The translations under genes and the position numbers were made by a program. A stretch of 38,916 nt of DNA from a virus, in the IMG/VR virus record IMGVR_UViG_3300045988_113856. One strand, written 5' to 3'. A model generated the notes under the pieces. That model did no database searches. It saw only the letters and a list, made by a program, of their open reading frames with translations, and had not been told where the DNA came from. This document shows positions 5,223-16,908 of this stretch, in pieces (the stretch's first letter is position 1; each line of letters starts with the position of its first letter).

Positions 5223-6459
5223 TCAATTCAAAGGGAAACAGTTAGACATCATCAACTGGTGGCGCCGCTATCCAGACAAGCAGACAATCATTGCTGATGG
5301 TGCTGTGCGTTCTGGAAAGACGTTTGCGATGTCGATCAGTTATGTTCTGTGGAGCATGATTGTGTTTGACCGCGAGCAATTTGGCATTGCCGGCAAAACC
5401 ATTGGATCATTGCGTCGAAATGTTATCAGGCCACTCAAACAAACATTGCAACAAGTGGGGTTCTCAGTCGTGGATCGGCGTTCAGAAAATATGCTGGAAA
5501 TCAGCCTTGATGGAAGAACCAACCTATACTACTTATTCGGTGGTAAAGATGAAAGCAGCCAAGATCTGATTCAAGGGATCACACTTGCCGGAATGTTCTT
5601 TGATGAAGCAGCTCTCATGCCACAGTCGTTTGTCAATCAAGCGACAGCGCGTGTTTCCGTTACTGGCGGCAAATACTGGTTCAATATGAACCCAGAGGGC
5701 CCGTATCACTGGTTCAAGACTGATTGGATTGATCAAGCGGACGAAAAACGCGCATTGCGTCTCCATTTCGTGATGACGGACAACCCAAGCCTGAGCAATG
5801 AAGTTATTGACAGGTACGAACATATGTACTCTGGAGTGTTCTACCAGCGATACATTCTGGGACAATGGGTTCTGGCTGATGGGATTGTCTACGACAACTT
5901 CAATAAAGACGAGATGGTCAGCAATCCAAGCCAGCAGCCAAGCCGATACTATGTCAGTGTGGACTATGGTACACAGAACCCCACAGTTTTCTTACTTTGG
6001 GGTAAATGTGGGTCTGTTTGGTATTGCCTCAAAGAGTACTACTACGATGGACGGCATAGCAGCAGACAGAAGACAGATGATGAATACGCTCGGGATTTCA
6101 GCCAATTTGTCGGTGACATACGCTGTGAAGTGATTGTTGATCCATCAGCGGCTTCATTTATTGCCAAACTGAGAGAACGCCGGTATCGAGTTATTAAAGC
6201 TGATAACGATGTGCTAAACGGCATTAGAGAAACGCAAACAGCTATGAACTATGGCGAGATCAAGTTCACACCTGGGCTGACTAATCTGTTCAAGGAGTTC
6301 GCGTCTTATGTGTGGGATGACAAGGCCAGTCAAAAGGGTGAAGACAAAGTGGTTAAGGCACATGACCACGCAATGGACGCCATGAGATATTTTGTCATGC
6401 AGGTAATCAAACGAAGAAATACAGCTCGCACGTTCAAGAACACAAGCAAATACTTCTAA
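5200..6459 (+). CDS. terL: Terminase large subunit (PBSX/Terminase_3 type, headful packaging)
   Basis: Walker A GAVRSGKT and C-terminal nuclease region. Start chosen at ATG 5200 after AAGGGTGG. The longer 5173 start overlaps terS. Confidence 0.9.
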   Translation: MSMTTPIDQFKGKQLDIINWWRRYPDKQTIIADGAVRSGKTFAMSISYVLWSMIVFDREQFGIAGKTIGSLRRNVIRPLKQTLQQVGFSVVDRRSENMLEISLDGRTNLYYLFGGKDESSQDLIQGITLAGMFFDEAALMPQSFVNQATARVSVTGGKYWFNMNPEGPYHWFKTDWIDQADEKRALRLHFVMTDNPSLSNEVIDRYEHMYSGVFYQRYILGQWVLADGIVYDNFNKDEMVSNPSQQPSRYYVSVDYGTQNPTVFLLWGKCGSVWYCLKEYYYDGRHSSRQKTDDEYARDFSQFVGDIRCEVIVDPSAASFIAKLRERRYRVIKADNDVLNGIRETQTAMNYGEIKFTPGLTNLFKEFASYVWDDKASQKGEDKVVKAHDHAMDAMRYFVMQVIKRRNTARTFKNTSKYF

Positions 6460-8879: not shown

Positions 8880-8973
8880 TGCCATCAAGTCCAAGCGTGA
8901 TCGACTATAAAAGCTCCGGTAAATTAAGACGCAAGCCTGATCCGTCTAAAAAGCTGTGGAAGGAGTTCTTAAC

Positions 8974-9630
8974 ATGATTCCCAAGATTTTAATGCCTATG
9001 AATTTGCAATTTTTCGCTGAAGATAACCCTCAAGGCGATCCGAAAGATCCAGTCGATCCGCCTAAGCCAAAAGATGGTGATCCGGTAGATCCACCTGAAG
9101 GTAAGAAGCAAGGAGAACCGGCTGACCCTGATCCTGATGGTAAGCACGTCTACACCGATGAACAGGTCAATGAAATCGTCAAGAAGCGTCTTGCTCGTGC
9201 CGAGAAGGAGAAGCAAGCTGCTGTTGACGAGGCTGCAAAGCTGGCCAAGATGAATGCCGACCAGAAGAAGGATTATGAGCTTCAAAAGGCTCAAAAAGAA
9301 CGAGACGAACTCAAGTCACAGCTTGCCACCTATGAGATGGGAAAACAAGCTCGATCAATGTTCGAAGATGCCAAGCTGTCGGTCACAGAGGACGATTTGA
9401 AGCATGTTGTAACGCCTGAGGCAGAATCAACCGAGACCAATGTTAAGTGGCTCATTGCGCACGACCAAGCCGTAGCAGAGCGCGTCCGTCAAGAACTGCT
9501 GAAAGGCAGTACACCATTGGACCCGTCCTCCAACCGCAAGACGAAGAGCCTCAAGGATATGACTTTGGTAGAGCGCAGCGAATTGCAACGAAAAGACCCA
9601 GAGATGTACAACAAATTACTAACAAAATGA
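8974..9630 (+). CDS. Capsid scaffolding protein (DUF4355-like)
   Basis: MNLQFFAE motif, Pro/Asp-rich linker, coiled-coil remainder. RBS GGAAGGAG lies 8 nt before ATG 8974. Confidence 0.85.
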   Translation: MIPKILMPMNLQFFAEDNPQGDPKDPVDPPKPKDGDPVDPPEGKKQGEPADPDPDGKHVYTDEQVNEIVKKRLARAEKEKQAAVDEAAKLAKMNADQKKDYELQKAQKERDELKSQLATYEMGKQARSMFEDAKLSVTEDDLKHVVTPEAESTETNVKWLIAHDQAVAERVRQELLKGSTPLDPSSNRKTKSLKDMTLVERSELQRKDPEMYNKLLTK

Positions 9631-9645
9631 AAGAGGTAAATAAAT

Positions 9646-10659
9646 ATGCCAGAATTTAGTGGTGCAACAGCCAAATTGAATTTGGTCGAACCTAAAGTAT
9701 TCGCGGATTATGTCTTGGAACAGCAAACTGCTACTAACCGTCTGCTTTCCAGCGGAATTCTCACTACCGACCCAATCATTCAAGCACAATTGCTCAAGGG
9801 CGGTACTTATGTAACTATTCCTACCCTGCACAGTCTGAGCGGGGAAGCTCAGACGTGGAACGACACTAGCGACATTACTGTCGGAAATGTTGACAGCTAC
9901 AGTGCCATTGCTCCACAGATGTACCAAGCCAAAGCGTTTGGTTACACAGACTTTGGTCAACTTTCCACCGGTGCTCCGGTTGCTGAACAGATCGCGGGGC
10001 AATTCGCATCCTTCTGGAACATCCAAGACAACAAGCTTCTGATCGCGGTATTGAAGAACGCGTTCCTCAATGCAGATTTGCAAGCGGTTAAGTCGTACGG
10101 TATGGGCACACCTGCTACGTTATCTGCTGGTGATTTCATTGCCGCATTGTCACGTATGGGTGACGTTGCCAGCCCTCAACTAACTAAGATTGTGCTTAAT
10201 TCTGCCGCTGTTGGTGCAATGCGCGATCAAAACTTGATTGACACTATTCAGCCATCTAATGGTGGTACGCCAATCAGCTACTACAACGGCATTGAGATCG
10301 TTGAAGACGATGCACTGCCAGTTGCAGCAGATGGTACCACGGACGCATTCATCATTGCTAACGGTGCTGTTTCTTATGGCTTGGCTAATCCAGAAAACAG
10401 CTATGAGGTCAAGCGTGACAGCCTTGGCAATGGTGGCCAAACTGCTGTTATCAACCGTCGCACGCTTGCAATGCAAGTTGCTGGTACGTCATTCACTGAC
10501 GTTACTAAAGTTGCTGGCCTTGGTTACAGCGCAATCAACGCTTCGGAAACATCTATGTACGATTTGGTTGGTGACCCTCGCAACATTGGCGTCGTTGACT
10601 ATCGCTTCAAGATTGATCCTAAGTTCGTCGTTGCTGGAATTAACGCCCCAAAAGCGTAG
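9646..10659 (+). CDS. Major capsid protein
   Basis: 337 aa directly after the scaffold gene, strong RBS, and codon usage typical of a highly expressed gene. Confidence 0.9.
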   Translation: MPEFSGATAKLNLVEPKVFADYVLEQQTATNRLLSSGILTTDPIIQAQLLKGGTYVTIPTLHSLSGEAQTWNDTSDITVGNVDSYSAIAPQMYQAKAFGYTDFGQLSTGAPVAEQIAGQFASFWNIQDNKLLIAVLKNAFLNADLQAVKSYGMGTPATLSAGDFIAALSRMGDVASPQLTKIVLNSAAVGAMRDQNLIDTIQPSNGGTPISYYNGIEIVEDDALPVAADGTTDAFIIANGAVSYGLANPENSYEVKRDSLGNGGQTAVINRRTLAMQVAGTSFTDVTKVAGLGYSAINASETSMYDLVGDPRNIGVVDYRFKIDPKFVVAGINAPKA

Positions 10660-10682
10660 CGCCGTCTGGAAATGACGACGGC
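10647..10682 (+). promoter_or_regulatory. -1 programmed ribosomal frameshift signal: C CCA AAA heptamer + stem-loop
   Basis: The heptamer is in the correct X XXY YYZ phase relative to the capsid frame (gcC CCA AAA gcg TAG). The gccgtc/gacggc stem (10661-10666 / 10677-10682) starts 7 nt downstream. Confidence 0.65.
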
Positions 10683-10826
10683 TTCGACCCTAGCGGAGAT
10701 GTAAAACCAACGAGTGCACAAACCGTTGATGAAATCAAAGCATGGCTGGATGCTCACAGCATTGATTATACCGGGAAGACCTTGAAGGCAGACTTGCTTG
10801 CGCTTGTCCCTTCAGACTAGCTTGAA
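10653..10826 (+). CDS. -1 frame C-terminal extension of the major capsid protein (57 aa, HeH/SAP-like motif)
   Basis: The -1 frame is open from 10644 to TGA 10824-10826 and has no in-frame ATG/GTG/TTG start. It encodes ...TVDEIKAWLDAHSIDYTGKTLKADLL... Confidence 0.55.
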
Positions 10827-10886
10827 CACCGTCGCTTATGAAAATCACAGTGCTGCGAAAGCAGGGCGGCGGAAAGGAGGCATGAC

Positions 10887-11261
10887 ATGGATAATGCTAA
10901 TCCGGTAACACTTGCGGATTTGAAGACGATGATGGAAATCAAAACTGACACACAGGATGATGTGCTCAATCTCATCATTACCAACACCACCAAAGCTCTC
11001 CGGTTTAAGCTCGGTTTAAAGCCCACAGAAGCCTTCCCAGAGGAGCTTTCATATATTGCCCTAGAAGTATGCGTCAGACGCTACAACAGGCGTAAGAACG
11101 AAGGAATGACGTCATACGAGCAAGAAGGACAGTCGTTCACGTTTAAGTCTAATGACTTCGATGATTTTGCTGACGACATCAATGACTGGAAAGAAGCCAA
11201 CGGGAAGAATGCTAAGTCTCTTGGCACCGTCAGCTTCATTCCCGGCTATCCAAAGAGGTGA
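10887..11261 (+). CDS. Head-tail connector protein (gp6-like)
   Basis: 124 aa, N-terminus ..VTLADLKTMMEIKTDTQDDVLNLIITN.., RBS GGAAAGGAGG. Confidence 0.75.
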   Translation: MDNANPVTLADLKTMMEIKTDTQDDVLNLIITNTTKALRFKLGLKPTEAFPEELSYIALEVCVRRYNRRKNEGMTSYEQEGQSFTFKSNDFDDFADDINDWKEANGKNAKSLGTVSFIPGYPKR

Positions 11262-13035: not shown

Positions 13036-13368
13036 ATGCAATTAACCATTAACGGTAAAGAATACGAGCTCAACTTTGGCGTCCGCTTTGTTCGCGAAAT
13101 GGATAAGAATATGGGTGCCGTCATGCACGGCATTAACTTTGGCATGGGTGTTGCAAAGGCTCTAGCTGGTCTAAGCGCATACGATGCTGCTGTTTTAGCA
13201 GACACCATTTATTCAGCCACCGTGGCATCTAAGAAACGTCCGTCAGCCAGTGAAGTCGATGACTTTATTGACAGCAATTCAGACTTAGATTCGCTATTTA
13301 AGCAAGTTTCAGACGAAATGAACAGTGCTAACGCAGTAAAAGCAGTAGCAAAAAACATGAAGGCCTAG
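13036..13368 (+). CDS. Tail assembly chaperone (gpG-like)
   Basis: 110 aa directly upstream of the tape measure gene. Contains the slippery site A AAA AAC near its 3' end. Confidence 0.8.
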   Translation: MQLTINGKEYELNFGVRFVREMDKNMGAVMHGINFGMGVAKALAGLSAYDAAVLADTIYSATVASKKRPSASEVDDFIDSNSDLDSLFKQVSDEMNSANAVKAVAKNMKA

Positions 13369-13826
13369 ATGAGGACGAAAGCGTTCAAAAGAGTAGTGAA
13401 GAAACGTATCACGAAATTTTGTTAAACGCATTTGCCTATCTAGGCTTTTCTAATATTCGAGACATTGAACGTATGACACTTGTTGAGTATGAGCTGCGTA
13501 TGGAAGCCTATCAGCTGAAGCAAGTCGACAGACAGAACGAAATTGCACAGCAAGCATGGATGAACCAGCAAGTGCAGGCAACCACCGGTAGCAAGAATCC
13601 TAAGCCTAAGTTCAAGACATTTGATGATTTCTTTGATAAGAAAGCGGCTATTGATAGCGTGCGATCAAATTATGAGCCCAATTATGAAGTATCACAGATG
13701 AGCAAAACCGAGCTCAAACAAAAGAGAGCACAAGTGTTCGCAAAACGGATGGCCGAATTTCAGCGGTTGAAGCGCGAAGGCAAAATCATTCCGTTATCTG
13801 AAAGAAAGGAGGGAGCACATGGCTGA
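13350..13826 (+). CDS. Tail assembly chaperone -1 frameshift extension (gpGT-like)
   Basis: gcA AAA AAC (13350-13356) is in phase. The -1 frame is open from 13332 to 13826. The only start offered is a TTG at 13419 with no RBS. Confidence 0.7.
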   Translation, partial: KKHEGLDEDESVQKSSEETYHEILLNAFAYLGFSNIRDIERMTLVEYELRMEAYQLKQVDRQNEIAQQAWMNQQVQATTGSKNPKPKFKTFDDFFDKKAAIDSVRSNYEPNYEVSQMSKTELKQKRAQVFAKRMAEFQRLKREGKIIPLSERKEGAHG

Positions 13827-16800
13827 CAGTTTTAGCGTTGAAGCAATTTTATCTGCCGTTGACCGAAATTTTTCGGGTACTTTCAAGAACATCGCGAATT
13901 CTGCGTCAAAGGTCGGTGATAGCTTTGAAAAGTCAACAAAACCAGCGGGTAATTTTGTATCAACCGTGAGCAAAATTGCTGGAGCCATAGGCCTTACCAA
14001 AGTGGTAGGGGCTATTGGCGATGGTGTGAGAAGTATGGTAGGAGAACTAGACGAATCAAGCAAAGCTTGGCAGACGTTTGAGGGGAACATGAAGTTTCTG
14101 GGTAAGGCGCCTGCACAGATTTCGTCAATTGAAAAGTCACTGCAATCATATGCTCAGGAGACTATTTATAGCTCGTCTGATATGGCCTCTGCCTATGCGC
14201 AGTTTGCATCAGTAGGTGTAAAAGGAGTAGGTAGTCTTGTCAAAGGAATGGGTGGCTTAGCTGCTGCCACTGATGATCCAAAGCAAGCCATGAAGACGTT
14301 GATGGAACAAGGTACACAAATGGCCGCTAAGCCGATGGTACAGTGGGCTGACTTCCGCCTAATGCTTGAACAGACTCCAGCAGGCATGGCGGCTGTGGCG
14401 AAAGCAATGGGCATGAGTACCAAAGAACTGGTTCAGAATGTTCAAAACGGCAAAATAAGCACACAACAGTTCTTTGATGGTATCGAAAAGGCAGGCAACA
14501 GCAAGGCTTTCCAGAAGATGGCCACGAGTTACAAGACAGTCGGCGAGGCAATGGACGGCCTTCAGGAAACACTGGCAAACAAGCTTCAGCCTGCTTGGCA
14601 AGCAATATCTAAAGTCGCTGTCGGAGCTATTAGCGGAATCATTGATAAAATTGGCGCCATTAATTTTGATTCTGTTATAGCATCAATCGGCAACTTTTTT
14701 TCTCCGTTTTCGGCATTGATTTTGAACATCAAGACACAACTAAGCAGCTTGGGGAAGGGCGACTCGATGAGCGGGCTCAGTTCCGTTCTCCAAGGAGTCG
14801 GGTCCGTTTTACAAACCATTTGGAGCCTAGTTGGTAGCTTAGTCAATGTTGCATTTGTCAATCTGATTGGTATTGCTCAAAAAGTGGGTGATGCGTTTAA
14901 TTCGGTGTTCGGTGGTGGGCAGCTTTCGGGAGTTTTCGATGGTATCAAGCAAGCCGTCACTGACTTTGGCTATGCAGCCATGGGAGCCATCACAACTGTT
15001 AGTGATATTATTGCTAACTTACCGTGGAAAGCAATTTTTGAAGGTGTTAAGGCGTCTTTAACTGGTGTTGTTAACGTGCTGAAGCCAATTGCGGCACTCG
15101 TCAAGGCGGCATTTGCAAACGACATCGTTAAATCATTTGCTGCGGCGATCCTTGGAGCTGTCGGGGCCTTCAAAGTAATTGGATTAGCCATCGGCGGATT
15201 TTCTAGCGTTCTCGGTGTTTTTTCCAAAATGATTGGCCCTATTAGAGGCGTTATATCCGTTATCACTAACTTCGGGACTATCGTAAAAACGGCTGGTGGT
15301 GTATGGAAAGCGTTTGGATTGATCTTAGGCATGAATCCGTGGGTACTTTTGATTGCTGGGATTGCAGCAGTGGTTGCTGGTCTGGTGTATTTTTTCACTC
15401 AAACAAAAACTGGTCAAAAACTTTGGTCGGGATTTGTTTCGTGGTTACAAGGAGCTTGGCAAGGACTTGTAGGAGTTGCGCAAACTGTTTGGAATGCTAT
15501 ATCGGGTGCGTTTACATCTGCAATTAGCGGCATTCAGACAGCTTGGAGTGGCATTACTAGTTTCTTCAGCAATCTATGGACTGGGATTACGACCACGGCA
15601 TCAGCTGCTTGGACGGCATTCACAACCACTCTCTCAGCTATCTGGCAAGGTTCTGTTACCGCAGCAACGGCAGTTTGGAACGCGCTATCCACATTCTTCA
15701 CGACTCTTTGGAATGGAATAGTTGCAGTAGCCACTGCTGTATGGTCAACCTTTGGCGGTTCTCTGACGACAATTTGGAATGGGATTGTCCAAGTTGCTAC
15801 CGGTGTTTGGAACATGCTTAAAGCAGTTATTATGGGCCCCATTCTTATCGTCATTGATTTGCTTACTGGAAATTGGACACAGCTAGGCGCTGACCTCCAG
15901 CTGATCTGGAACAGCATTGTTTCCGCCGCTGGACAGATTTGGAATGGTCTTGTTACGTATTTCTCCGGTATTTGGAGCCTTATTCAAACTTATGCAATGA
16001 CTGTTTGGAATACTTTGGTTTCAGCTTTAGAGGGGCTTTGGAATGGCGCAGTATCTGCCGCTTCCGCTATTTGGAGTGCGCTTTCGTCATTTTTCAGCGG
16101 ATTATGGAGCGGTATTGTGTCTACCACTGAGGGCGTATGGAACAGTGTTGTTTCATTCTTATCAGGACTATGGAGCGGAACAGTCAGCACAGCCGAGGGA
16201 ATTTGGAACGCACTTCCCGGATTCTTTTCCGGATTGTGGAACAGCATTACATCATTTTTTTCATCAGCTTGGAGCAATATAAAGTCTATTGTGATTGGAG
16301 CTGCTACTAGTATTTTTAATGGTGCAAAGGCTGTATGGTCTGGTTTTACTGGCATGGTAAATGGTGTGGTTAGCGGTATCAAAGGAGCCTTCGATGCGCT
16401 TAGACACATTGATTTAATGGCTGCCGGTAAAGCAATCATGGACAGTTTCTTAAAGGGGCTTAAGAAAGTCTGGGAAGGCATCAAGAAGTTTGTTGGCGGA
16501 ATAGCTTCTTGGATTCGCAAGCATAAAGGCCCAATCAGCTACGATGCCAAGCTGCTCATACCTGCTGGTAACGCCATCATGAACGGCTTAAATGCAGGGC
16601 TTACTGACAAGTTCTCAAATGTCCAAAAGAACGTTTCGAGCATGGCACAAGCTATTGCTGACAGTGCTGCTGTTACGATGCCGGAAGTGAATACTTCTCC
16701 CTTTGATACATCATTGCAGTCGCTTAATAACAGCGTCCAGGGTACGGCCTTGTCTTCAAATCTTGATGTCAACTACACTCGCAAGCAAACGATTGAGGTT

Positions 16801-16908
16801 CCACTGTACATTGACGGCCGAGAGGTTGCTCGTGCAACCGCAAACCCAATGCAAACAGAGCTTAATCGTTTGACAAAGGTAAGCAATTATCGAAAGGGGC
16901 TAGTCTAA
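13819..16908 (+). CDS. Tail tape measure protein
   Basis: 1029 aa, Ala/Gly-rich helical N-terminus, central transmembrane-like stretch, 11-residue Trp repeats. Confidence 0.95.
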   Translation: MADSFSVEAILSAVDRNFSGTFKNIANSASKVGDSFEKSTKPAGNFVSTVSKIAGAIGLTKVVGAIGDGVRSMVGELDESSKAWQTFEGNMKFLGKAPAQISSIEKSLQSYAQETIYSSSDMASAYAQFASVGVKGVGSLVKGMGGLAAATDDPKQAMKTLMEQGTQMAAKPMVQWADFRLMLEQTPAGMAAVAKAMGMSTKELVQNVQNGKISTQQFFDGIEKAGNSKAFQKMATSYKTVGEAMDGLQETLANKLQPAWQAISKVAVGAISGIIDKIGAINFDSVIASIGNFFSPFSALILNIKTQLSSLGKGDSMSGLSSVLQGVGSVLQTIWSLVGSLVNVAFVNLIGIAQKVGDAFNSVFGGGQLSGVFDGIKQAVTDFGYAAMGAITTVSDIIANLPWKAIFEGVKASLTGVVNVLKPIAALVKAAFANDIVKSFAAAILGAVGAFKVIGLAIGGFSSVLGVFSKMIGPIRGVISVITNFGTIVKTAGGVWKAFGLILGMNPWVLLIAGIAAVVAGLVYFFTQTKTGQKLWSGFVSWLQGAWQGLVGVAQTVWNAISGAFTSAISGIQTAWSGITSFFSNLWTGITTTASAAWTAFTTTLSAIWQGSVTAATAVWNALSTFFTTLWNGIVAVATAVWSTFGGSLTTIWNGIVQVATGVWNMLKAVIMGPILIVIDLLTGNWTQLGADLQLIWNSIVSAAGQIWNGLVTYFSGIWSLIQTYAMTVWNTLVSALEGLWNGAVSAASAIWSALSSFFSGLWSGIVSTTEGVWNSVVSFLSGLWSGTVSTAEGIWNALPGFFSGLWNSITSFFSSAWSNIKSIVIGAATSIFNGAKAVWSGFTGMVNGVVSGIKGAFDALRHIDLMAAGKAIMDSFLKGLKKVWEGIKKFVGGIASWIRKHKGPISYDAKLLIPAGNAIMNGLNAGLTDKFSNVQKNVSSMAQAIADSAAVTMPEVNTSPFDTSLQSLNNSVQGTALSSNLDVNYTRKQTIEVPLYIDGREVARATANPMQTELNRLTKVSNYRKGLV
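15421..16345 (+). repeat. In-frame 33-nt (11-aa) periodic Trp repeats within the tape measure protein
   Basis: ...VWNAISGAFTS AISGIQTAWSG ITSFFSNLWTG ITTTASAAWTA FTTTLSAIWQG... continues for more than 25 units. Confidence 0.85.

Follow-up and report, generated by a model that had tools for sequence, protein, structure and literature searches.

The window examined here is the whole 38,916-nucleotide (nt) viral sequence IMGVR_UViG_3300045988_113856 from IMG/VR. It belongs to a Lacticaseibacillus phage or prophage, and its major head (capsid) gene ends in a predicted −1 ribosomal frameshift site that would add a helix-extended-helix (HeH) domain to some of the capsid subunits. Among GenBank records, phage R10.1 (genus Pleetrevirus) is the nearest, at 91.7% nucleotide identity across the capsid region; the capsid protein is 97% identical to the R10.1 protein and 38–47% identical to Lactobacillus phage capsid proteins. 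The initial annotation had called a major capsid gene at this position, which is supported both by its location between scaffold and connector genes and by a PHROGs profile search, where the product was assigned to the phrog_247 major head protein (E 9.5e-76, residues 5–328). The capsid body, presumed to adopt the HK97 fold, is recognized by PHROGs alone, with no Pfam or NCBIfam match. The features at the end of this gene are listed below.

9646–10659, plus strand: major head (capsid) gene, read in the 0 frame to give the short product (337 amino acids (aa), 35.5 kDa), ending ...GINAPKA*
10641–10643, plus strand: TAA in the −1 frame, just 5′ of the slip site
10647–10653, plus strand: slippery heptamer C CCA AAA, phased as X XXY YYZ and located two codons ahead of the head-gene stop
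10647–10663, plus strand: conserved 17-nt cassette CCCAAAAGCGTAGCGCC, comprising the heptamer, an Ala codon, the 0-frame stop and CGCC
10657–10659, plus strand: TAG, the 0-frame stop of the short form, read in the −1 frame inside GTA GCG (Val-Ala)
10661–10666 and 10677–10682, plus strand: predicted stimulatory hairpin GCCGUC/GACGGC (6 bp, 10-nt loop, 7-nt spacer, about −8.8 kcal/mol)
10653–10820, plus strand: predicted −1 extension SVAPSG...ALVPSD, 55 codons, with its TAG stop at 10818–10820
10653–10703, plus strand: linker SVAPSGNDDGFDPSGDV, 17 aa, acidic, rich in Gly, Ser, Asp and Pro, flexible
10704–10817, plus strand: HeH domain KPTSAQTVDEIKAWLDAHSIDYTGKTLKADLLALVPSD, 38 aa, with predicted helices at 10725–10754 and 10776–10805
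Within the predicted −1 tail: the tail peptides SVAPSGNDDGFDPSGDVKPTSAQTVDEIK and AWLDAHSIDYTGK

The capsid gene closes with AAC GCC CCA AAA GCG TAG. Measured against the open reading frame (ORF) 9646–10659, the heptamer C CCA AAA stands in the correct phase, as the initial annotation had proposed, and the gccgtc/gacggc stem-loop that it placed at 10661–10682, 7 nt downstream, is likewise present. The −1 frame opens at 10644, where it reads (RPK)SVAPSGNDDGFDPSGDVKPTSAQTVDEIKAWLDAHSIDYTGKTLKADLL..., and because it is preceded by the −1 TAA at 10641–10643 and the capsid frame is closed by the 0-frame TAG, any shift joining the two frames is confined to the 13 nt between these stops (10644–10656), which are mostly occupied by the heptamer. 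Read in the −1 frame, the cassette encodes (P)K-S-V-A-P, and the predicted post-slip product runs ...GINAPK-SVAPSGNDDGFDPSGDVKPTSAQTVDEIKAWLDAHSIDYTGKTLKADLLALVPSD. The long form sacrifices only Ala337; otherwise both products share the whole capsid body. In relatives, the CGCC that closes the cassette forms the foot of the 5′ hairpin arm, and in the window pairing begins at G10661. Across the 7258 codons of the 25 plus-strand ORFs of the window, 19 in-phase X XXY YYZ heptamers were counted, about one per 380 codons, and only two of them, at 10647 and 13350, are no more than five codons from a stop and give access to a −1 ORF of more than 44 codons. The joint chance of such a coincidence is about 1e-3 or less per gene.

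With the extension, the predicted long capsid form has 391 aa and a mass of 41.2 kDa. The initial annotation described an open −1 frame from 10644 to 10826 and a 57-aa tail; the start is correct, while the frame ends at the TAG at 10818–10820 and the tail comprises 55 new residues. It had also read GG at 10800–10801 and an ending GACPFRLA*, and had suspected an indel or a sequencing error at the C-terminus. The window holds a single G at 10800 (cttGcgc) and the tail ends ...KADLLALVPSD, so that the ALVPSD* proposed as a repair is already the real ending and no indel or sequencing error is needed. The tail frame was further said to contain no ATG, GTG or TTG and hence to be no independent gene. 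ATG and GTG are indeed absent, whereas TTG occurs at 10782 and 10794, inside helix 2; since these codons would yield peptides of only 12 and 8 aa, the domain is nevertheless left with no usable start. Neither a Shine-Dalgarno sequence nor a promoter was found upstream of the tail.

The substitution pattern of the tail is that of a coding sequence. Among 20 unique tail DNAs, 18, 14 and 37 columns are variable at codon positions 1, 2 and 3, respectively, each out of 39, and the ratio of nonsynonymous to synonymous polymorphism (pN/pS) is 0.18 in the tail frame, while the two remaining frames give 1.4 and 2.4. These 20 tails were picked by a C-terminal motif, which inflates the conservation of that motif, while the third-position pattern is not a product of this selection. 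By this sequence measure, the HeH tail is evolving as a protein under purifying selection.

The coherent linker and HeH motif described in the initial annotation were recovered in both profile and structure analyses. When 16 diverse homologous tails were compared with Pfam, 13 gave HeH at E<0.01, the best at 7.5e-12. An AlphaFold2 model built from an eight-sequence alignment shows an unstructured linker followed by two helices (residues 25–34 and 42–51) with a 7-residue connector; the mean predicted local distance difference test (pLDDT) score is 75.9, with values of 87–90 at residues 11–40 and 52 at residues 1–10. The top solved-structure match found with the tail profile is the C-terminus TVEQLKAQLTERGITFKQSATKAELIAL of PDB 2OUT (E 0.001). 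The HeH cores are acidic, with a net charge of −4 to +1 and an isoelectric point (pI) mostly of 4.5–6, and the whole tail has a pI of 4.2. SAP, HeH and LEM domains usually bind DNA, a role to which such acidity is ill suited, and the net charge of the cores speaks against binding of a polyanion; DNA or teichoic-acid binding, considered as a function of the tail, was down-weighted for the same reason. The linker ranges from about 10 to about 80 aa among homologous tails, which suggests that the length of the tether is tunable. Low-complexity linkers of about 80 aa, composed of Ser, Ala, Gly, Asp, Pro and Glu, were observed in loci L100, L127 and L232 (Loigolactobacillus bifermentans).

An IMG/VR search based on the capsid, in which the slip site was not a selection criterion, gave 30 loci; with R10.1 included, 27 relatives with capsid identities of 67–99% retain the gene end. 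In each of the 27, C CCA AAA stands two codons ahead of the stop and the −1 frame behind it is open. The comparison of the −1 frame across relatives that the initial annotation had put forward as a check thus came out in favor of the frameshift, the frame being open in 27/27 with a pN/pS of 0.18 in its own frame. Nine close relatives (95–99% capsid identity) have the same HeH tail, and four more distant ones (67–68%) keep the heptamer and the HeH tail, with a CGCCACC/GGUGGCG hairpin at an unchanged position. The other 14 (93–97%) have no HeH and instead carry a 90-aa −1 tail with a Big_2 immunoglobulin-like (Ig-like) domain (PF02368, E 2.6e-14); loci L013–L023, L026 and L033 are among these Big_2-tailed close relatives. 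Between HeH and Big_2 carriers, nucleotide homology is lost at the end of the junction motif (10664) and regained at the tail stop (10818), from which it follows that the tail has been cleanly swapped and that the exchanged unit is exactly the tail.

The downstream hairpin is preserved in the same comparative manner. A hairpin of 5–8 bp starts 5–7 nt past the heptamer in 16/16 HeH contexts examined. In most of these contexts the 5′ arm starts with the CGCC of the junction, whereas window-type contexts pair one base later, at GCC. The arm pairs covary among cassettes (CGCCGUC/GACGGCG, CGCCAUC/GAUGGCG and CGCCACC/GGUGGCG), with compensatory changes at stem position 5 (G:C or A:U) and position 6 (U:A or C:G), and several of the hairpin variants are individually improbable (shuffle p 0.002–0.03).

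The junction itself has a precedent in Lactobacillus phage A2, to which the initial annotation had attributed the same heptamer at the same position. This agrees with the A2 genome sequence, in which ORF5 ends acC CCA AAA GCG TAA cgcc, with 17 nt identical to the CCCAAAAGCGTARCGCC of the window at the same position, and with a paper on the A2-like phage BH1, which gives CCCAAAA as the sequence on which ribosomes slip in head genes of the A2 type. According to secondary sources citing Garcia, Rodriguez & Suarez 2004, the A2 head gene undergoes −1 ribosomal frameshifting and the long product is essential. The BH1 paper reports that liquid chromatography–tandem mass spectrometry of virions detected the Ig-like piece that lies just downstream of the head gene. 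The −1 frame of A2 encodes an 87-aa Big_2 Ig-like domain after the junction, not HeH. A second CCCAAAA site is present in A2, with a different sequence after it.

To place this junction in a broader context, the 17-mer CCCAAAAGCGTARCGCC was followed across IMG/VR, where it is present in at least 119 contigs; the counts of occurrences, tail types and shared clusters given next apply to the matches listed. About 120 of 136 occurrences end a long 0-frame ORF, and the −1 frame continues with S-V-[A/T]-P, a low-complexity linker and then either a Big_2-like (90 cases) or a HeH domain (32). The proteins upstream of the 17-mer fall into at least 10 clusters unrelated by blastp, and both kinds of tail were found in four of them. 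Head proteins that end in the cassette belong to phrog_247, 422, 10, 544, 29, 840 and 267, i.e., at least seven families, and the major tail protein phrog_88 also does so. HeH tails are 65–82% identical across capsids that have no detectable sequence similarity. In this sample they occur on head proteins only (32 HeH contigs, 20 unique tails), while Big_2 occurs on head and tail-tube proteins, which hints at a capsid-specific role for HeH. In a one-genome-per-species collection, about 23 true cassettes were identified, all from Lactobacillaceae or Enterococcus among the records with titles shown; the remaining 101 or so of the 124 matches to the 17-mer are at chance level (about 139 expected in 596 Gb).

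Some phages carry the 17-mer twice, at the end of a head gene and of a structural gene of about 200–230 aa (positions 5846 and 8240 in locus L115, 5418 and 7812 in L145, 3401 and 6124 in L149). In L115 the second of these genes is a major tail protein according to PHROGs, and each copy is followed by a Big_2 tail; in L149 there are two near-identical 214-aa double-domain tails. The 17-mer also ends ORFs of 626 and 644 aa (L080 at 2874 and L102 at 4394), with −1 extensions of 102 and 141 aa that are not HeH and not obviously Big_2, and these may represent further cargo types or other structural genes.

HeH tails are also reached by other routes. A tblastn search with the tail returned 60 phage records (Lactobacillus, Streptococcus and Leuconostoc). 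In phage P7.1 the HeH domain is joined in frame to the head protein, as read from its sequence, and for LF1, phiPYB5, phiAQ113, KC5a and Lj771 the annotation, which is the only basis for these five, places HeH inside the head gene. Lactobacillus plantarum phage H1-Guo (L003 2478–2617) has acG GGA AAA TAG, a CCCCGG/CCGGGG hairpin and a −1 HeH ORF, and L. fermentum JNU_P1 (L004 1849–2131) has GCA AAA AGC TAG, an A-run −1 site, again with a −1 HeH ORF. In Streptococcus Javan393 (L005 1979–2117), CCC TAA T is accompanied by a hairpin and a +1-frame tail, in a layout resembling that of phage PSA; Javan129 (L160 1773–1923) and phiMH1 (L006 1961–2123) also have the HeH tail in the +1 frame. All five of these tails sit after HK97/ClpP-type capsid genes, and their recoding signals are putative. 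With in-frame, −1 and +1 access all observed, the HeH tail displays the same indifference to route that has been described for Ig-like domains.

The 77-aa "hypothetical protein" PQ472_07745 of Lacticaseibacillus pabuli (CP117884; L158 2910–3234) is a gene-caller fragment whose TTG start lies within an uninterrupted −1 ORF; that ORF begins at the aaC CCA AAA GCG TAA of a PF05065 capsid gene and includes a linker of about 60 aa. A stand-alone HeH gene as an ancestral or alternative state was considered on this example and rejected, the L. pabuli case being an annotation artefact. The PHROGs family phrog_12526 ("unknown function") is probably made up of such gene-caller fragments.

We propose that most ribosomes would read ...CCA AAA GCG TAG and release the 337-aa capsid protein. 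Some would pause with tRNA-Pro and tRNA-Lys on CCA AAA, delayed by the hairpin 7 nt downstream, re-pair one base back on CCC AAA and read on in the −1 frame past the former stop, which would give a 391-aa capsid protein with a 17-aa acidic linker and a 38-aa HeH/LEM-type domain. Downstream of the junction, Big_2 or HeH tails would be exchanged by recombination, and a minority of subunits would display HeH outside the capsid on its flexible tether. Judging from the sequence evidence above, we put the probability that a fraction of ribosomes shift −1 at 10647–10653 and produce this HeH-tailed capsid form at roughly 85%. What the sequences show is the layout of the site and its conservation, purifying selection on the tail, covariation in the hairpin and the match to the A2 junction; the occurrence of the shift in this phage, its efficiency, the incorporation of the long form into virions and its external display are what we infer. 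The extension of T7 gp10B is displayed externally, and this precedent, together with the interchangeability with Big_2 and the flexible acidic tether, makes exposure of the HeH domain on the capsid exterior the most likely arrangement by analogy.

Several points weigh against this proposal. The window hairpin taken alone does not differ significantly from dinucleotide shuffles (z −0.46 for the 37-nt fold), a stem of at least 6 bp arises at the right place in 368 of 5000 shuffles (7%), and when 81 nt around the site are folded, the local hairpin is absent from the minimum free energy structure (z −0.50). The thermodynamics of a single hairpin sequence are thus uninformative, and the case for the hairpin rests on comparison with other sequences. 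The tail of the window itself scores 21.7 bits against PF12949 (HeH/LEM; E 1.7e-4), under the cut-off of 28.9 bits, and a Foldseek search with the tail model gave no PDB matches and nothing below E 2 in BFVD, which we attribute to the small size of the domain. The tail and 17-mer samples are partly motif-selected, and this inflates motif conservation, although the capsid-based sample is free of such selection. Lactobacillus brevis phage 3-SAC12 (locus L157 1480–2517; 47% identity), the nearest capsid homologue beyond the L. casei group, has no slip site or tail, and its next gene begins 20 nt after the capsid stop; the capsid fold can therefore do without the tail, which makes the tail an accessory acquisition. 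The acidity of the HeH cores leaves the assignment of a function weak, analogy is the sole argument for external display, and the long form is a prediction from sequence, here and for any other HeH-tailed capsid. Searches turned up no proteomic data on this phage or on R10.1, and the analogous protein evidence comes from A2 and BH1, whose tails are Big_2.

Other explanations of the same locus were weighed against ribosomal frameshifting. RNA polymerase stuttering on CCCCAAAA could in principle make the long form, and the site does contain short homopolymer runs (C4 and A4). Polymerase slippage typically becomes appreciable at runs of six or more A/T, however, and the runs of four at this site are well under that length. 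A review describes transcriptional slippage as another way in which some genes of bacteria and phages yield this kind of product, but the exact X XXY YYZ phase and the 5–7-nt hairpin spacing are both conserved, as would be needed for ribosomal and not for transcriptional slippage, and the secondary sources describe the A2 case as ribosomal; we regard this alternative as very unlikely. It is highly improbable that the HeH sequence is instead a small independent gene with its own start, encoding a stand-alone head-associated protein. In line with such a gene, a word-indexed protein search found seven "hypothetical proteins" of 57–77 aa that match the tail, PHROGs holds a 53-position family for such pieces (phrog_12526, E 4e-17), a Streptococcus agalactiae phage has an annotated 84-aa HeH/LEM protein right after a gpE-like capsid gene, and a 42-aa ORF is annotated over the domain in Javan129. 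Against it, the tail frame opens at 10644 without ATG or GTG and has TTGs only inside helix 2, no Shine-Dalgarno sequence or promoter lies upstream, the single "independent" example that was checked (PQ472_07745) is a fragment of a continuous −1 ORF, and the strict conservation of the heptamer and stop at the junction would be left unexplained.

The locus might also be a broken in-frame capsid–HeH fusion, in which a 1-nt indel, real or due to sequencing error, has left the tail untranslated and decaying. In-frame capsid–HeH fusions do exist elsewhere (P7.1 by reading and five others by annotation), and an indel near the C-terminus had been suspected at the outset, yet the indel suspected at 10800 came from misread letters, purifying selection acts on the tail, and the same offset, heptamer and stop recur in all relatives as well as in over 100 independent contigs. 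The relatives are not clonal copies of one defective prophage, as they span 67–99% capsid identity and carry different tails, and the identical junction in A2 is, according to secondary sources, an experimentally established frameshift site. A broken fusion is accordingly extremely improbable. Coincidence, with an accidental heptamer, hairpin and open −1 frame and with 10660–10886 as a mere intergenic spacer, could draw on the thermodynamically unexceptional hairpin and on the frequency of in-phase heptamers in the window (about 1 per 380 codons). Its probability is practically negligible given the joint chance of about 1e-3 or less per gene, and it would not explain the codon-position-specific conservation, the Pfam HeH matches or the recurrence of the junction on unrelated capsid genes.

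The genes on either side of the head gene are as follows.

8956–9630: DUF4355 scaffold gene, upstream neighbor of the head gene
10887–11261: gp6-like head-tail connector gene, downstream neighbor of the head gene

From the tail stop to the connector gene runs a 66-nt spacer that shows high conservation, also when HeH carriers are compared with Big_2 carriers, and that contains, at 10843–10886, a small CUGC-GAAA-GCAG hairpin followed by a strong Shine-Dalgarno sequence GGAAAGGAGG. No promoter and no terminator were predicted in the interval between the capsid and connector genes. The other heptamer of the window that opens a long −1 frame, A AAA AAC at 13350–13356, is in phase, four codons from the stop of a 110-aa ORF (13036–13368), and opens a 156-codon −1 ORF (to 13826) that ends where the 1029-aa tape-measure gene (13819–16908) begins. 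It is a canonical frameshift site of the G/GT-type tail assembly chaperone; in the R10.1 record, the second part of the chaperone pair is annotated as a separate coding sequence.

The mechanism and the exact slip site are already known from A2-type phages. In the searchable literature, outside which much of the subscription literature lies, we found no A2-type site on an unrelated capsid family, no HeH as an alternative cargo and no conserved junction at which HeH and Big_2 replace each other as alleles, and the literal string "C CCA AAA" gave no match; the sole related mention is an entry in an annotation table, a stand-alone HeH/LEM gene beside a capsid gene. The long capsid form is absent from every record examined: the region is blank in R10.1, H1-Guo, JNU_P1, Javan393 and phiMH1, and in the L. 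pabuli and Javan129 records a fragment of the tail is called a "hypothetical protein". We consider it an evenly balanced possibility that the junction is a portable recoding cassette, serving both recombination and translation, through which phages of Lactobacillaceae and Enterococcus could fit any head or tail-tube protein with interchangeable sub-stoichiometric display domains, with HeH as a previously unrecognized acidic, capsid-specific class of such domains that probably does not bind DNA, has its own ligand or assembly role and has been reached independently via −1, +1 and in-frame routes.

A simple annotation rule would be to look for an in-phase CCCAAAA-like site no more than two codons from a head-gene stop with a HeH or Big_2 domain encoded after it in the shifted frame; for hundreds of phages and prophages of lactic acid bacteria, including those of probiotic and dairy strains, this would restore a missing virion component to the annotation. 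Capsids that are 93–97% identical and differ only in carrying HeH or Big_2 constitute a natural experiment on the function of these domains, and for engineering the cassette would point to a position on Lacticaseibacillus phage capsids where sub-stoichiometric display is tolerated. The promiscuity of accessory domains added by recoding, known for Ig-like domains, would extend to a second, structurally unrelated domain.

Among known systems, the lambda-type G/GT chaperone likewise depends on −1 programmed frameshifting, with an X XXY YYZ site shortly before a short ORF ends, as exemplified in the window at 13350–13356; it is a different gene that acts in tail assembly, however, its long form is not in the virion, and it has no exchangeable display domain. 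The HeH/LEM, SAP and Rho_N families (PF12949, PF02037) share with the tail the motif, the topology and the conserved G-K-T-x-K-A-D-L-L, but their classical members are basic binders of nucleic acid or chromatin, whereas the HeH tails are acidic and located on a capsid protein. FluMu gp35 (HI1507; PDB 2OUT), the best solved-structure match to the tail, is also a phage protein, although a separate one of 131 aa from a Gram-negative Mu-like prophage, made without a frameshift.

Recoding near the end of the capsid gene that extends a minority of subunits is described in a review for T7 gp10A/10B, T3 and the Listeria phages A118 and A500 (−1) and PSA (+1). The window resembles these systems in extending its major capsid protein at the C-terminus by recoding near the gene end; they use other slippery sequences in other hosts, and their extensions are Ig-like or uncharacterized, not HeH. 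Streptococcus phages reach HeH via a CCC-stop +1 layout similar to that of PSA. Ig-like (Big_2/FN3) accessory domains are added in frame, −1 or +1 without apparent preference and are mobile among unrelated structural genes (Fraser et al. 2006, as summarized in the Atkins review), which is the same pattern of access and mobility as that of the HeH tail. The two kinds of domain differ in structure, as the tail is a two-helix HeH and not a β-sandwich and matches HeH, not Big_2, in Pfam; Ig-like domains have been proposed to bind carbohydrates weakly, a property without obvious parallel in the HeH tail.

Finally, A2 gp5A/gp5B differs from the window system in its capsid, which is of the HK97/protease type, 400 aa long, with a cleaved propeptide and unrelated in sequence, whereas the window has a phrog_247 protein with a DUF4355 scaffold and no protease. 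The 87-aa Big_2 Ig-like tail of A2 likewise contrasts with the 55-aa linker and HeH tail, no simple hairpin of the window type is predicted downstream of the A2 site, and the long form is reported as essential in A2 and is a sequence-based prediction in the window. The likeness lies in the junction: as in A2, and also in BH1, Lrm1, J-1 and PL-1, which infect the same host group, C CCA AAA GCG TAR CGCC stands two codons before the stop, the −1 tail opens with S-V-[A/T]-P, and a short and a long form, here predicted, are made from one head gene.

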